From: Candidatus Nanoarchaeia archaeon
Lineage (GTDB): Archaea; Nanobdellota; Nanobdellia; Woesearchaeales; ARS49
Direction of reading: 5' to 3'
Length of the DNA stretch: 64,000 nucleotides
Assembly (NCBI GenBank): GCA_041488275.1
Contig: JBGPOY010000003.1
Location: forward strand, 14,092 to 78,091
The notes beneath the pieces were generated by a model. It saw nothing but the letters and a program-made list of their open reading frames with translations, did not search any database and had not been told where the DNA came from. Positions within the stretch are counted from its first letter, which is position 1, and every line of letters starts with the position of its first letter. Of this stretch, positions 17,234 through 46,165 are shown piece after piece. The position numbers and the translations under genes were made by a program.

Positions 17234-17677
17234 ATGACAATGGCAAATAAGGCAAACGGACTGAACGTGGCGAAATCGCTTATTGCCAGGCGCCACGCCG
17301 GCCGTTGGCACTCGAAGAAGTACGTCAAGCGCATTCTCGATCTCAAGACCAAGGCCGACCCGCTCGAAGGCGCGTCGCAGGCAAAAGGAATCGTTCTGGA
17401 AAAGGTTCAGCTCGAAGCCAAGCAACCGAACTCCGCGATGAGAAAGTGCGCCCGCGTCCAGCTCATCAAGAACGGCCGCCAAGTGACTGCGTTCATGCCG
17501 GGCGACGGCGCGCAGAAGCTCATCGACGAACACGACGAAGTCATGATTGAATGCATCGGCGGAAAGAAAGGACGCGCGAAAGGCGACATCCCCGGAGTCC
17601 GCTGGCAGGTTATCAAAGTCAACGATCAAAGCCTCGACGCATTGCTCGACGGCAAGATCGAGAAGGCACGAAAGTAA
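17234..17677 (+). CDS. rps12: Ribosomal protein uS12
   Basis: [15 protein letters not shown] and GDIPGVRW motifs. 147 aa. Confidence 0.95.
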
Positions 17678-17678
17678 T

Positions 17679-18299
17679 ATGGCAGACGAAGTTGCAGCCC
17701 ACTCCGGAATTCTCGCGTTCAACACGTGGAACACCGAAGGTATCGTGGTCGAGGACCTGGGCTTGCAGCGCTACATCATCACCCAAGCGCGTATCGTTCC
17801 CAAGACCGGCGCGCGCTACGCGGGCCACAACTTCCACAAGAGCAAGGTCTTCATTGTCGAACGCCTGATTAACAAGGTCATGAACCCCGGCACGAAGTCG
17901 GGCAAGCACTGGCACAGCTCCGGCCACATGACGGGCATGGCTCCGCAGGCGTACGACATCGTCCGCCGCGCGTTCATCCTGATTGAACAGCGCCTGAAAG
18001 AAAACCCGATCAAGGTCTTCGTCAAAGCGTTGGAAAACGCGGCTCCGAGAGAAGAAATCGTCACGATTGAATACGGCGGCGCCCGCTATCCGAAAGCGGT
18101 CGAGTGCGCTCCGCAGCGACGCATTGACATCGCATTGCGGTACTTCACGCAGGGCGCGTACGGCAAGAGCTTCAACTCCAAAGTCTCCATCGAAAGCGCG
18201 CTCGCCGACGAAATCATTTCCGCGTACCGGCTCGACCAGAAGTCAACCGCCATCCAGAAAAAGCTGGAATTGGAACGACAAGCGGACGCGAGCAGATAA
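17679..18299 (+). CDS. rps7: Ribosomal protein uS7
   Basis: Starts at the internal ATG 17679, 1 nt after the S12 stop. REEIVTIEYGGARYPKAV and IDIALRY are typical of archaeal S7. Confidence 0.92.
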   Translation: MADEVAAHSGILAFNTWNTEGIVVEDLGLQRYIITQARIVPKTGARYAGHNFHKSKVFIVERLINKVMNPGTKSGKHWHSSGHMTGMAPQAYDIVRRAFILIEQRLKENPIKVFVKALENAAPREEIVTIEYGGARYPKAVECAPQRRIDIALRYFTQGAYGKSFNSKVSIESALADEIISAYRLDQKSTAIQKKLELERQADASR

Positions 18300-18445
18300 T
18301 TCTTGCGACTTCGTTGAACTAAGAGAAGAGTCTTAATCCTGACTGCGAAGCAGTCAGTTATGACCTGCTTCTCGCAGTGGAACGAGGAGCAATTTGCTCA
18401 AGCTTTTCGAAAGCTTGCGACATGCGGACGCGAGCAGATAATTCT
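18282..18445. repeat. 22-nt direct repeat of the rps7 3' end (gcggacgcgagcagataattct) flanking a 120-nt insert
   Basis: Exact copies at 18282-18303 and 18424-18445. Weaker similarity continues for about 15 nt beyond each copy. Confidence 0.8.
18309..18420 (+). repeat. Copy 1 of a ~110-nt structured repeat (second copy at 46053-46165)
   Basis: Collinear similarity to 46053-46165 with no gaps over the first 88 nt. Central hairpin CTGACTGC-GAA-GCAGTCAG at 18339-18357. Confidence 0.75.
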
Positions 18446-18493
18446 GACTCTTCGTGCATAACTCTTTAAAGACCACTCTTCGGCGCTTCTTCC

Positions 18494-19723
18494 ATGAAGT
18501 TTGGGAAGAAAGTCATCGCCGGCGCGCTCGTGGCCGCCGCAAGTCTCTTGTCGCCTGCCTACGCGCAGAATGAGCCGGAAGTCTACGACAAGAACCCGTC
18601 GATTTCCGTCCCGATAAAGAGCCCCGTCACCAACGCCGACGCGAACACGCTCTTCAACGCGGGCGCGAACACCGCAACAGGCCTGCTCCTCAAAACACTG
18701 TCCAATGCGATTGACGTGGACAGCCCATGGTACCGCGGCGGCGAAACACTGACGCAGGTGTCCATCGACTCGTTGACCGCGGCAGTCTTTCACGAATTAG
18801 CCCATTACCGCGAAGCAGGCAACTTGGATAACTCTCGGCCCGGATTGCACGTGACGCCGCAGTTCGACCTTCGCCCCTTCGCGTACGGCATCTTCAGCGG
18901 AGGCGAGACCTCAATGATTGCCCAATATGATACTCCTGCCGTCCTGCCCGTAAGCGCCGCTGAACTGCTGGGCGTCATCGTTGCGGGACCCAACCAGCAG
19001 CACTTGAACGCGGCGCACATCTGGCGCACGAGCCGCGCACCGACGCGCACGTATCAGGATTCGGCGTTCCTGCTGTCGCAGCTTGCGGAAACAACCAGCC
19101 TTTTCTTCGACCCGCTCGCCAACGATGTCGTCGTGTACGGCAGTTTGATGAACCAGACTGGCATCCCCGTCAGCACCGCGCGGCTCAAGCGCAGCTCCGA
19201 AATCATCACCTTGCTCAATCTGCCCGTCTATGAATCCATCGCGCACTTGGTGGATTTCATCGCGACCGGAGAGCGCGAACACACACCGCTCAGTTTAGAA
19301 TTGGGCGACTGGACCATCTACGCGCCGCTCTTCACCAAATACATGACCGCGAAAGGCGAATTCGCGAACATTGAATTGCTCATCGACGGACCGGTGAAGT
19401 TCGACATCTCGTTCGGGAGAGACCTGAAGTTTAACCAACCGAGTGCGCCGCTCGACTGGATGCGGTTTGGCGGCACGGTCACGATTCCGCTGGACGGCAT
19501 CAGGCCGGGATTGACCGTCGCTCCGTTTGTCTACCTCAACAGCAAACGTTCGCAGCTGACGTATGAAGGCATCGCGACCGGGTTCGGCGTGTCGTATCCT
19601 CTGGTGCCGCGGTTTATGATTGATGGAATGGTTGAATACCAGAATAAAGACATCATTGAGCGCGTCGTCAAGAACTACCAGCAGCACTTTCAGTTCTTGG
19701 CGGGGTTCAGCCTGCGCTTCTAA
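18494..19723 (+). CDS. Secreted protein with bacterial outer-membrane beta-barrel-like C-terminal signature
   Basis: Sec-type signal peptide ending AYA-Q. The C-terminus HFQFLAGFSLRF has alternating hydrophobics and a terminal Phe. TATA ctttaaag lies about 25 nt upstream of the ATG. Confidence 0.6.
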   Translation: MKFGKKVIAGALVAAASLLSPAYAQNEPEVYDKNPSISVPIKSPVTNADANTLFNAGANTATGLLLKTLSNAIDVDSPWYRGGETLTQVSIDSLTAAVFHELAHYREAGNLDNSRPGLHVTPQFDLRPFAYGIFSGGETSMIAQYDTPAVLPVSAAELLGVIVAGPNQQHLNAAHIWRTSRAPTRTYQDSAFLLSQLAETTSLFFDPLANDVVVYGSLMNQTGIPVSTARLKRSSEIITLLNLPVYESIAHLVDFIATGEREHTPLSLELGDWTIYAPLFTKYMTAKGEFANIELLIDGPVKFDISFGRDLKFNQPSAPLDWMRFGGTVTIPLDGIRPGLTVAPFVYLNSKRSQLTYEGIATGFGVSYPLVPRFMIDGMVEYQNKDIIERVVKNYQQHFQFLAGFSLRF

Positions 19724-41935: not shown

Positions 41936-44131
41936 ATGGCAGAAGATACAAAACTCCAACGCGCGCAAAAACTCTCACGAGAGCAGAAGAACATCCGCAA
42001 CATCGCGACTTCTGCGCACATTCACCACGGCAAGACCGCGTTCACCGACAACCTGCTCTCTGCAGCGGGCTTCATGTCCAACACCGCCGCGGGCGACCTC
42101 GACAAGGGCATGGCCACGTGGCAGCACAAAGACGAGCAAGAACGCCTGATGACGGTCGACGCCGCGAACGTCTCCATGGTTCACACGTTTGACAATCAGG
42201 AATATTTGATTAACTTAATCGACACGCCCGGACACATCGACTTCGGCGGCAACGTCACGCGCGCGATGCGCGCCATTGACGGCACCGTCGTTCTCGTCTG
42301 CGCGTCGGAAGGCATCATGCCGCAGACCGAAACCGTGCTGAAGCAGGCCTTGCGAGAACGTGTCAAGCCCGTGTTGTTCATCAACAAAGTGGACCGCCTC
42401 ATCAAGGAGATGCAGTACACGCCGGAACAGATTCAGGCGCGCTTTGTCAAAGTCATTCTGGAATTCAACCGCCTTATCGAGCAGATTGCGGAAGGAGAAT
42501 TCAAGCAGAAGTGGAAGGTCAACATCCAGGACGGCAGCGTCGCGTTCGGAAGCGCGCGCGACAACTGGGCGCTCTCGCTCCAATACATGCAGAAGAAGGG
42601 AGTCTCGTTCAAGGACATCCTGAAGCTCTACGACATGGACGAGAAAACGCGCCAGGACTGGGTCTGGAAGAACGCTCCCCTGCACGAAGTCATTCTCGAC
42701 ATGGTCATCAAGCATTTGCCCGACCCGGTGGAAGCGCAGAAGTACCGCATCCCGAAGATTTGGCACGGCGACCAGGAAAGCCCGCTCGGCAAGAGCCTCA
42801 TGACGTGCGACCCGAACGGAAAACTCGCGTTCGTCATTACGCGCATTTTGATTGAACCGAAATCCGGAAGAGAAATCTCCGCCGGAAGATTGTACAGCGG
42901 CACGATGCGCGAAGGCATGACCGTCTACCTGAACAACGCAAAGCAAGAACAGCGCGTCGGACAGGTGTTCCTCTATCAGGGCATCAAGCCCGAACTCATT
43001 GACTCCGTTCCGGCGGGAAACGTCCTCGCGATTGCAGGAGTCACCGGATTCGCGGGCGAGACCATCACGATGGAGCCCGACCAGCCGTTCGAGGAATTGA
43101 AGCACATCTTCGAACCCGTCATCTCGAAGGCAATCCTGCCCGTCAAGCCGCAGGACTTGTCGAAACTTGTTGAGGTTCTGAGAAAAGTCAGCAAGGAAGA
43201 CCCGTCGGTCAAGATTGAAATCAACCAGGAAACCGGCGAAAACCTCCTGCACGGCATGGGCGAACTTCACCTCGAAATCATCGAGAACAGAATCATCACG
43301 GAAAAGGGAGTCCAAATCAAGACGTCGCCTCCGATTGTTGTCTACCGAGAAACCGTCTCGAAGGCGAGCGCGGAAGTCGAAGGAAAGTCGCCGAACAAGC
43401 ACAACAAGCTCTACTTCAAGGTCGAACCGCTGGAACCGCACATTTCCGAACTGATTCGGAAGGGCGACATTTCGGAAGGCAGAATCAAGAAGAAAGACTT
43501 GGTCTTGCGAGACACGCTCGTGGACGCGGGCTACGACAGCGATACGGCGTTGTCCATCAAGGACATTTACAAGGGCAGCATCTTCATGGACGCCACGCGC
43601 GGAAACGTGCAGCTCTCTGAATGTATCCAGCTCGTCATTGAAGGATTCGAGCAAGTGATGGACGCGGGTCCGCTCGCGCGCGAACCGTGCTTCGGCATCA
43701 AGGTCACGCTCACCGACGCTCGCTTGCACGAAGACGCGATTCACCGCGGCCCCGCCCAGATGTACCCCGCCGTGCGCGAGGGCGTCCGAGGCGCGATGAT
43801 GCAGGCAGGTCCCGTCATCTTCGAACCTATCCAAACGCACTTGCTGGAAGCTCCGATTGAATTCACGGGCGACCTCACGAAGCTCGTGATGAACAAGCGC
43901 GGACAGATTTTGGAGATTAACGAAGTCGGCACGCAAACGAACGTCAAAGCGAAGCTGCCGGTCGGCGAAATGCTTGGCTGGAGCTCGGACTTGCGTTCCG
44001 CGACCGGCGGACGCGGACAAAGCTCGCTCGTCGACCAGACCTTCGAGAAACTCCCGAACGAACTGCAGAACAAGATCACCGCGCAAATCGTGCAGCGGAA
44101 AGGCTTGACTGCGGGACAATTGGGCGCGTAA
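41936..44131 (+). CDS. fusA: Translation elongation factor 2 (aEF-2)
   Basis: G-domain AHIHHGKT, DTPGH, NKVD, and the diphthamide-loop DAIHRG. 731 aa. Confidence 0.95.
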   Translation: MAEDTKLQRAQKLSREQKNIRNIATSAHIHHGKTAFTDNLLSAAGFMSNTAAGDLDKGMATWQHKDEQERLMTVDAANVSMVHTFDNQEYLINLIDTPGHIDFGGNVTRAMRAIDGTVVLVCASEGIMPQTETVLKQALRERVKPVLFINKVDRLIKEMQYTPEQIQARFVKVILEFNRLIEQIAEGEFKQKWKVNIQDGSVAFGSARDNWALSLQYMQKKGVSFKDILKLYDMDEKTRQDWVWKNAPLHEVILDMVIKHLPDPVEAQKYRIPKIWHGDQESPLGKSLMTCDPNGKLAFVITRILIEPKSGREISAGRLYSGTMREGMTVYLNNAKQEQRVGQVFLYQGIKPELIDSVPAGNVLAIAGVTGFAGETITMEPDQPFEELKHIFEPVISKAILPVKPQDLSKLVEVLRKVSKEDPSVKIEINQETGENLLHGMGELHLEIIENRIITEKGVQIKTSPPIVVYRETVSKASAEVEGKSPNKHNKLYFKVEPLEPHISELIRKGDISEGRIKKKDLVLRDTLVDAGYDSDTALSIKDIYKGSIFMDATRGNVQLSECIQLVIEGFEQVMDAGPLAREPCFGIKVTLTDARLHEDAIHRGPAQMYPAVREGVRGAMMQAGPVIFEPIQTHLLEAPIEFTGDLTKLVMNKRGQILEINEVGTQTNVKAKLPVGEMLGWSSDLRSATGGRGQSSLVDQTFEKLPNELQNKITAQIVQRKGLTAGQLGA

Positions 44132-45980: not shown

Positions 45981-46052
45981 GTCGTTCGTCGTTTTCCAAC
46001 TCAATCCGAGCTGCGACTCGGATGAGCCACAGGACGCATTGCGTCCTGTGTG

Positions 46053-46165
46053 CTTCGTGAAGCAGAAAGAAGGGTCTCAATCCTGCTTGCGAAGCAGGCA
46101 GTTATGGCTTGCTTCTTGATGCTGAACGAGAAGGAATTTGGCCAAACTTTACCAAAGGTTGAGCG
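46053..46165 (+). repeat. Copy 2 of the ~110-nt structured repeat (first copy at 18309-18420)
   Basis: Hairpin CTGCTTGC-GAA-GCAGGCAG at 46083-46101 has paired substitutions relative to copy 1. It lies immediately upstream of the tuf promoter. Confidence 0.75.

Follow-up and report, generated by a model that had tools for sequence, protein, structure and literature searches.

The window analyzed here, a 64,000-nucleotide (nt) stretch of contig JBGPOY010000003.1 from a Candidatus Nanoarchaeia archaeon, contains, on the coding strand and directly after the stop codon of the ribosomal protein S7 gene (rps7), a copy of a clade-restricted, non-coding and strongly structured repeat of about 115 nt, behind which the end of rps7 is encountered a second time. 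At least 89 distinct copies of this element were gathered from one family of Woesearchaeota-type DPANN archaea, and 28 of these 89 are flanked by a direct repeat of 13-103 nt. The manner in which the two copies of the repeat differ across the family suggests that, most likely, homology-anchored recombination has brought together two orthologous gene ends, a "3'-end displacement", and that the copies are not duplications produced by a staggered cut; we would place the probability of this reading at about 0.55. Below, X1 and X2 designate the upstream and downstream copies of the repeat, and genomes and loci are cited by G and L handles, with G000 being the present genome, a metagenome-assembled genome (MAG) of 917 kb in 13 contigs with 57% G+C and 93.8% completeness.

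A structured repeat behind the S7 gene

The rps7 gene is the final member of an rpoA''-NusA-S12-S7 block, in which S12, a NusA-type KH protein and RpoA'' were recognized upstream by Pfam analysis. As a sequence-only reading of this DNA had noticed, a 22-nt segment, GCGGACGCGAGCAGATAATTCT, is exactly duplicated at 18282-18303 and 18424-18445; it has no third occurrence in the window, and none of 100 shuffles contained such a match. The first copy comprises the final S7 codons, the TAA stop (18297-18299) and 4 nt more, also in agreement with that reading, and when a single mismatch is allowed the repeat grows to 28 nt and brackets a 114-nt insert (Table 1). The looser similarity that had been described for about 15 nt beyond the repeat is at chance level, as 561 of 2000 shuffles score equally high. 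The sole difference between X1 and X2 at this locus is a CAA to CAT change at the edge of the repeat in X2, which would be non-synonymous; the corresponding Gln codon of S7 (CAA, 18279-18281) is kept as CAA or CAG in six S7 genes of the same genus. The element begins right after X1, without any spacer, and its 114 nt make it the shortest repeat-to-repeat insert seen in the family, the 5' junction being ambiguous by 2-3 nt (CT/TCT). Given this lack of a spacer and the identity of the copies over 22 nt, the S7 copy is therefore young or of same-lineage origin. Its flank is common to none of the other 62 aligned copies of the element.

Table 1. Coordinates of the S7 locus, its element copy and the second element copy of the window
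Feature	Position	Strand	Evidence or remark
rps7 (ribosomal protein S7), intact anchor gene	17679..18299	+	Pfam Ribosomal_S7 1.6e-37
Repeat copy X1, native S7 3' end (codons, TAA, 4 nt)	18276..18303	+	Continuous with the S7 reading frame; exact over 18282-18303
Imperfect rod-shaped hairpin; its three internal loops carry conserved tandem G·A/A·G	18303..18392	+	Minimum free energy -47.7 kcal/mol, z -3.9; covarying consensus
Inserted element copy, 114 nt	18304..18417	+	Covariance model R1: 132 bits, E 2.8e-29; aligns with the 6 other copies of the genome
Apical hairpin of the rod	18339..18357	+	
3' terminal hairpin CAAGCTTT-TCG-AAAGCTTG	18399..18417	+	Its base is the exact right boundary of the element
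Repeat copy X2, displaced or duplicated S7 gene-end remnant	18418..18445	+	No reading frame upstream; CAT in place of the S7 CAA
TATA-like TTTAAAG, 29 nt ahead of the ATG of the next gene	18465..18471	+	Read from the sequence; outside the 24 consensus TTTAWAWACCC sites
Downstream gene B, 409 aa, signal-peptide-like N-terminus	18494..19723	+	Without a Pfam family
Second element copy; the TATA box of the EF-1alpha promoter lies 9 nt downstream	46045..46163	+	R1 117.2 bits; EF-1alpha by Pfam

The layout of the locus is not an artefact of one assembler, because a Logan contig, produced with a different assembler, agrees at every position of 17900-18900 (0 differences) and gives no sign of an alternative joint; the run behind it is the only one holding the region and probably the source sample, and it does not amount to independent data. 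That the layout merely reflects an assembly error, or that the S7 end was simply duplicated in tandem without any involvement of mobility or recombination, is effectively refuted, and we accord it a negligible probability. The MAG origin of the sequence and the single run would be the points in its favor. They are countered by the repeat being shorter than the usual assembly k-mers, by a joint that shares no sequence through which a mis-join could arise, by the concordance of the second assembler, and by the membership of the intervening 114 nt in a family of at least 89 copies from many independent assemblies.

The suggestion that the DNA between the repeats is an insert bearing a conserved hairpin element is borne out by this family, of which searches with BLAST, nhmmer and the covariance model R1 (built from alignment A3) recovered exactly seven full copies in G000. 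Among 60 relatives searched, 14 of 36 other genomes of the same family bear 1-11 copies each, and 24 genomes belonging to the order's other families yielded none. Within the genus, four of six genomes possess the element (11, 10, 4 and 1 copies) and two are devoid of it. When 77 genomes of the family were searched by BLAST with a single copy as query, element matches were obtained in 17. A gapped pattern scan of genome contigs followed by R1 recovered 38 further matches, which include 27 new copies; the repeat analysis left out 12 of the 38, namely ten duplicates and two with short flanks, of which one (in L095) nevertheless represents a genuine additional copy. Every one of the 38 R1 matches belongs to a record with the title Candidatus Woesearchaeota, Nanoarchaeota, Nanoarchaeia, "uncultured Methanosarcinales archaeon" (third-party annotation assemblies) or "uncultured archaeon". 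The DNA pattern by itself is unspecific and also hit many bacterial sequences and four viral contigs; all the bacterial matches and all four viral ones failed R1. Scans with Rfam 15 gave nothing overlapping the element at E<=10 in the window segment 17000-19500 or at E<=1 in ten further loci, a literature search covering open-access papers recovered no description of it, and a scan of a metagenome collection with the 22-mer returned 0 records. Of the two unpublished genomes in the dataset, G015 contributes 2 of the 63 aligned rows, 1 of the 17 repeat cases among them (L027) and one gyrB orthology remark (L012), while G030 enters only the tallies of reverse transcriptases and integrases.

The element is not a conserved 3' untranslated region (3'-UTR) of S7, because it follows S7 in none of the six other genomes of the genus, a comparison that the sequence-only reading had proposed. 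The DNA downstream of S7 is non-syntenic in these six genomes, which consequently offer no clean empty site for the locus.

Folding of the seven G000 copies with RNAalifold produced a rod of ~90 nt and a separate 8-bp 3' hairpin, the latter being of the form CAAGCUUU-NNN-AAAGCUUG in G000 and CAAACUUU-NNN-AAAGUUUG in most relatives. The consensus rod displays three symmetric internal loops with conserved tandem G·A/A·G pairs, separated by helices of 3-5 bp. When 63 copies were placed on this model (alignment A4), 91.5% of the cells were paired, as against 34-48% with the partners slid by 1-3 columns, and double-sided changes were observed in 33 of 38 base pairs, values reached in none of 500 shuffles, with the caveat that A4 had been fitted to the structure being tested. 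The terminal hairpin (helix 8) is 99% paired and shows double changes in seven of its eight pairs. On the given strand G·U and U·G pairs together number 60 versus 33 for A·C and C·A, an excess that weakly favors the plus strand as the folding strand. The perfect hairpin CTGACTGC-GAA-GCAGTCAG reported earlier for the S7 copy is indeed present and constitutes the tip of the rod. The palindrome aagcttttcgaaagctt likewise exists, though at 18400-18416, one base away from where it had been placed, and together with a closing C-G pair it spans the entire terminal hairpin. An alternative pairing of GAAGCAG (18347-18353) with CTGCTTC (18365-18371) had been located correctly, but finds no covariation in the 63 copies (81.3% paired versus 80.2% when shuffled).

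The fold is also retained at corresponding genomic sites. In L052, L018 and L064, whose flanking proteins agree on either side, and in the gyrB pair L006 and L012, it is kept via 6-8 compensatory pairs; the pair L005 and L009, judged by reading to be the LigT-S2 context and not linked in the flank comparison, shows eight. These compensatory pairs at orthologous sites imply that the fold is therefore either maintained in place or restored through replacement of copies by folded ones. Downstream of the element in L018, L052 and L064 (G005, G003 and G006), an orthologous locus, a second conserved motif is seen, comprising a GC hairpin, GAATCCGCC...GGCGGA, and then CCCGTCAGTGAGTGAAGAC. The sequence of the element itself is 70-80% conserved across genera.

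The repeated gene ends

The flanking repeats were sought in the 250 nt to the left and to the right of each copy, with significance defined as a score reached in none of 100 shuffles. The longest are those of L053 (103 nt), L027 (67 nt), L031 (62 nt) and L010 (61 nt). They were recovered in 17 of the 63 aligned copies and in 11 of 26 further ones, and were not detected in the remaining 61 of the 89. Their frequency varies between genomes, from all five copies of G017 through 5/11 in G010, 2/3 in both G011 and G028, 1/3 in G013, 1/2 in G015 and 1/7 in G000 (which has in addition a borderline case at gyrB) to none in G003 (0/11), G006 (0/9) and G004 (0/4). The two junctions behave differently: X2 starts between -5 and +4 nt of the 3' end of the model in 26 of the 28 cases, and flush with the hairpin base in 13, while the distance between the end of X1 and the conserved start of the element on its 5' side is variable, with a spacer of -3 to 163 nt.

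The repeated segment is the end of the neighboring gene, and its upstream copy extends to the stop codon of that gene or to the end of the tRNA. It corresponds to the 3' end of a same-strand open reading frame (ORF) in 19 cases, and to a tRNA end, mapped with ARAGORN, in most of the others: 3' ends on the same strand in L013, L061 and L063, 5' ends together with the promoter on the opposite strand in L010, L016 and L154, and nearly the whole tRNA in L027. Coding repeats were compared with same-strand ORFs only, reverse-strand ORFs being consulted solely for the 11 remaining cases, where they yielded one weak candidate (L104). The intact gene lies on the 5' side of the element, except in L024 and L065, where an intact tRNA is on the 3' side. 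At least 25 different target sequences accompany a single element family, whose copies are scattered singletons other than the adjacent pairs in L065 and L095. The former locus (G010, locus positions 564-781) contains a tRNA predicted by ARAGORN with a 146-nt intron that holds an antisense copy of the element, and a second copy abuts the 3' end of the same tRNA with a 13-nt repeat.

In 17 of the 19 coding cases X1 and X2 both run to a stop codon, in one common register, and the identity of the stop (TGA, TAG or TAA) differs in 10 of these 17, even after 23-29 identical nt in L109 and L119. Over 12 loci, with G015 and G030 excluded from the count, the codon differences between X1 and X2 comprise 33 synonymous and 7 non-synonymous ones; under random substitution 8.5 of the 40 would be expected to be synonymous, and none of 5000 simulations reached 33. 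In L036 and L030 the similarity at the protein level runs past the nucleotide repeat right up to the stop. A non-functional duplicate in neutral decay would collect mostly changes of the non-synonymous type, and would do so at a higher rate than the gene in use.

The gyrB copy in G000 is particularly informative on this count. Here X1 is GAAGTCAAAGAGCTCGACGTTTAG and X2 is (G)AAGTCAAGGAATTGGACGTTTAA, both encoding EVKELDV followed by a stop. X2 is identical at 23 of 23 positions to the end of the functional gyrB of G003 and is near to those of G001, G002 and G006, while X1 has derived codons and a TAG stop in common with G004, which is element-less at this site. Because X2 is identical to the G003 end while X1 matches the states of G004, the comparison of these sequences indicates that X2 is probably a gene end from a different allelic lineage and not a drifted copy of X1. 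A further case is the L053 locus of G017, with a repeat of 103 nt, for which G092 and G062 display a contiguous, element-less arrangement of upstream flank, single repeat and downstream flank; the insert with its duplication is therefore the derived condition. In comparison with G092, the outgroup state is kept by X2 at 5-6 of the differing positions and by X1 at 2-3.

Recombination between gene ends and its alternatives

These observations can be accommodated by a model in which a segment made up of a gene 3' end, a spacer and the element would recombine with an allele of that gene from which the element is absent, either of the two sides possibly being the incoming one. The left join would occur by homology within the gene, and the right join would be non-homologous and fall exactly at the base of the 3' hairpin, so that the resident gene end would be displaced downstream instead of being replaced. 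At the S7 locus the first copy of the gene end would complete the working gene, with the element behind it, and the second would be the leftover end, stranded between the 3' hairpin and the next gene. Recombination of an element-bearing with an element-less allele is favored by the synonymous bias, the in-register stop swaps and the foreign-identical gyrB remnant. It would also explain why X1 ends at the stop codon, namely because similarity between alleles stops where the gene stops, as well as the differing stops, the synonymous differences and the use of conserved genes and tRNAs as anchors. The element could then spread between lineages by hitch-hiking on such anchors (ribosomal proteins, gyrB, tRNAs) without a transposase of its own. 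The sequence-only reading had viewed the S7 repeat as a long target duplication; the duplication is real, but its derivation from a staggered cut finds no support in the family as a whole, where these same three features speak against it.

Several observations nevertheless weigh against such a displacement. The S7 copy by itself fits either explanation equally, displacement or a fresh staggered-cut target duplication, because no difference separates its X1 from its X2 along 22 nt that take in the TAA and 4 non-coding nt, and so it cannot decide between them. Perfect repeats that include non-coding trailers are also found in L063 (35/35), L024 (44/44) and L031 (62/62). L095 has the arrangement [X][E1][identical X][E2], in which two differing element variants each stand after the same 48 nt; the simplest explanation is that an element inserted a second time and duplicated 48 nt of its target. 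No microhomology was seen at the joints between element and X2, which leaves the breakpoint at the hairpin base without an explanation. The element is present in dozens of unrelated contexts, and some route to new loci is still required. No element-less allele joining S7 directly to gene B was found in the relatives, in the contigs of two runs or in the 22-mer scan of metagenomes. The synonymous bias could moreover stem from later allelic replacement of X1, though this is unlikely, because the differences extend right to the stop codon.

Alternatively, the element might be a classical non-autonomous transposon that targets the vicinity of gene ends, mobilized by an unknown enzyme that makes long and variable staggered cuts, with the repeats as true target-site duplications and the synonymous bias arising from subsequent allelic exchange. 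Insertion sequences of the IS1634/IS1549 type do generate long direct repeats of variable length, and the precise 3' end, the spread of repeat lengths, the many perfect repeats running across non-coding sequence, the two variants behind the same 48 nt in L095, the dispersal over unrelated loci and the range of 0 to 11 copies within one genus all accord with such an origin. Despite this we consider it unlikely, if still a serious contender, since the predominance of synonymous changes and the in-register exchange of stops run counter to it, as does a remnant that matches the functional gene end of another species while the working copy has diverged. There is also no reason for the cut site to be so placed that 17 of 19 coding repeats run to the gene end. 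The element lacks terminal inverted repeats, and of five element-rich genomes none has TnpB and two have DDE_Tnp_1, other transposase families, HUH nucleases and Cas1 not having been searched. A search for an autonomous partner with the same 3' hairpin in five genomes returned only known element positions and three unexamined places (one in G011 and an overlapping pair in G010).

The orthologue-like divergence of X1 and X2 recalls instead that of the attL and attR sites of integrative elements, and a small circle containing gene end, spacer and element might integrate at the matching gene end by means of a tyrosine recombinase or by homologous recombination. The targets, being tRNAs and 3' ends of protein-coding genes that are restored by the element-side copy, would suit this proposal, as would the eight tyrosine-recombinase matches of G017, in which all five copies have fresh repeats. 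We regard it as improbable all the same: G000, G004 and G005 carry copies with no match to the tyrosine recombinase family PF00589 (E<=0.001 for G000; serine recombinases were not searched), with 135-250 bp the circle would be tiny by the standards of double-stranded DNA, at least 25 target sequences are combined with one conserved element, and the 5' spacer of -3 to 163 nt is at odds with a site-specific reaction, which gives two precise joints. As a separate observation, this search detected no XerA-type recombinase in G000, despite its completeness, or in G004 and G005.

A retroelement resembling short interspersed nuclear elements (SINEs), inserted by target-primed reverse transcription, would account for a precise 3' and a variable 5' junction along with duplications of variable length, the junctions being as observed, and the RNA-like covarying structure with its excess of G·U pairs on the plus strand, as well as A-rich runs behind several G003 and G006 copies, might be taken in its support. 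However, reverse transcriptase (RT, PF00078) was not found in G000, G003, G006, G010, G013 and G015, and across the family it occurs in 6 of 14 element-bearing versus 5 of 22 element-free genomes; orthologue-like repeats are not expected from target-primed reverse transcription, and the A-rich runs appear, by eye and on crude ORF calls, to adjoin the ends of convergent ORFs. Such an origin is accordingly very improbable in our estimate. Partial RT matches with the same coordinates (positions 47-325) and the same model range were seen at the starts of two G017 contigs, C15 and C20, and would fit a multi-copy retroelement that breaks the assembly. In sum, no resident RT, integrase, TnpB or DDE enzyme tracks the element.

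Displacement of the kind favored here has a precedent in the C-terminal (3'-end) displacement by homology-facilitated illegitimate recombination proposed for rhs, contact-dependent inhibition (CDI) and type VI secretion system (T6SS) effector-immunity loci (Kirchberger et al. 2017, PMC5361080). The scheme in both situations has a module anchored by homology in a conserved upstream gene, while its other end joins illegitimately and the resident 3' end persists downstream as an orphan, in which part of the gene is repeated. There the cargo consists of toxin and immunity genes, while here it is a 115-nt non-coding structured element, its anchors are archaeal housekeeping genes and tRNAs, the orphan is 13-103 nt long and the position of the illegitimate joint is fixed to a single nucleotide at the hairpin base. 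A process of this type should leave the end of a conserved gene repeated, with the intact gene on one side and an orphan on the other, which is what is seen in the coding and tRNA cases, and should bring together copies from different functional alleles, to which the 33:7 ratio of codon differences and the match of the gyrB X2 to the G003 end correspond.

Other known systems show partial likenesses. Archaeal integrative plasmids and viruses of the SSV, pNOB8 and pT26-2 types insert into the 3' ends of tRNA or protein-coding genes and carry a copy of the gene end. As with the present element, the duplicated target end flanks the insert, the element-side copy restores the gene, and the two copies may differ in the manner of orthologues; unlike them, the element has no integrase, with none detectable in G000, its insert is only ~115 nt, and one family is combined with many unrelated targets and a variable 5' junction. 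Transposable elements of the miniature inverted-repeat type (MITEs) and the bacterial REP sequences (repetitive extragenic palindromes) with their mosaic elements (BIMEs) are similarly short, non-coding, multi-copy, hairpin-forming and intergenic, often at 3' ends. In contrast to MITEs, there are no terminal inverted repeats, since the 5' end of the element pairs with rod position ~90 and its 3' end is a self-contained hairpin, and no short target duplication of fixed size; and neither MITEs nor REP/BIME sequences share the covariation of the whole rod or the long gene-end repeats with mostly synonymous differences. The attC sites of integrons possess two characteristic boxes at the hairpin base, R'' (RYYYAAC) and R' (GTTRRRY), and both were present in none of 63 copies of the element on either strand. 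Such sites have been reported in Nanoarchaeota, within the DPANN (Ghaly et al. 2022, PMC9668308), and they resemble the element in being imperfect hairpins of 60-140 nt directly after a same-strand stop codon, with structure better conserved than expected. They differ from it in forming cassette arrays, whether or not IntI is present, while the copies here are singletons by housekeeping genes that retain sequence conservation across genera.

Genomic contexts and possible functions

The seven G000 copies occupy distinct contexts. Besides the S7 copy, followed by X2 and the gene for a 409-aa exported-looking protein, for which the TTTAAAG sequence of Table 1 is a possible native promoter, the element stands between a 204-aa ORF and the promoter of elongation factor (EF) 1alpha, between GINS51 and the promoter of L44e, between a GATase gene and the promoter of a 139-aa ORF, and between LigT and the promoter of S2. 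After gyrB it is followed by X2 and then by a convergent ORF. The seventh copy is antisense to a divergent gene for phosphoenolpyruvate (PEP) synthase or pyruvate phosphate dikinase (PPDK), lying between the apparent promoter of that gene and its ATG; this context is orthologous in L004 (contig C4 of G000) and L011 (G006), and the antisense element would there belong to the 5' leader. In five of the G000 copies the element starts 0-12 nt past a same-strand stop codon or includes the stop; as crude ORF calls are unreliable in GC-rich genomes, the orientation described is that of G000 and is not extended to the family.

G000 has 24 sites with a strong promoter of the type TTTAWAWACCC. An element copy immediately precedes four of these, the TATA box being separated from the hairpin base by 9-10 nt, and the 9-nt spacing is also found in relatives. 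The EF-1alpha and L44e copies additionally have ~45 nt of promoter and early transcribed sequence in common 3' of the element. Immediately ahead of two element-less strong promoters (G000:C1:57456 and C2:113657) there is likewise an 8-bp hairpin, which reaches with its 3' arm to just upstream of the TATA box.

The usual order of the str operon in archaea is S12-S7-EF-2-EF-1alpha-S10. It had been pointed out that the insert takes the place of EF-2 behind S7, and EF-2 is in fact not adjacent to S7 in G000. The operon is split, with the S12-S7 part (17234-18299) ending at the element copy and the C-terminal domains of EF-2 located 25 kb downstream, as an EF-G/EF-2 C-terminal ORF at 43550-44131, after which come three ORFs, the second element copy of the window, EF-1alpha and S10. 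Element copies thus mark both break points of the operon, at the end of S7 and directly before EF-1alpha.

On the basis of its sequence and context the element might also act at the RNA level, as a structure in 3'-UTRs, a suggestion that we hold tentatively. A transcribed 3'-UTR element or an insulator would be in keeping with the maintenance of the fold in place, with the position on the coding strand after stop codons and with the constant distance to strong promoters. A canonical terminator is a poorer match, with one copy antisense in a 5' leader and one G010 copy antisense within a tRNA intron, and in the G000 copies no run of four or more T residues was seen after the hairpin on reading the sequences. 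More speculatively, and with a rather low probability in our view, the element could be a self-promoting recombination signal, whose 3' hairpin marks a fixed DNA end, for example a site of processing, nicking or uptake, and which may at the same time serve as a structured 3'-UTR or insulator RNA before the strongest promoters. A transferred fragment would in that event end at the element, and a single homologous anchor, the adjacent conserved gene, would suffice for its integration.

DPANN archaea are characterized by tiny genomes, few recognizable mobile elements and heavily shuffled gene order. In this setting, a well-defined covarying element of 115 nt, absent from Rfam and previously undescribed, has been placed repeatedly at the ends of core genes (S7, gyrB, GINS, LigT and tRNAs) and directly before the strongest promoters (EF-1alpha, L44e and S2), with a reproducible scar beside it in the form of what is most likely a displaced gene end of orthologous origin. 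If it does act as RNA, it would represent a new class of archaeal structured 3'-UTR or insulator. If it is a recombination signal of the kind just outlined, it would be a 115-nt element that spreads between lineages without a transposase, walks between loci and re-shuffles gene order at conserved genes. If the favored recombinational origin of the repeats is true, these scars would provide a testable mark of DNA exchange between lineages of uncultivated archaea, and would mean that non-coding DNA can spread in them without a transposase.

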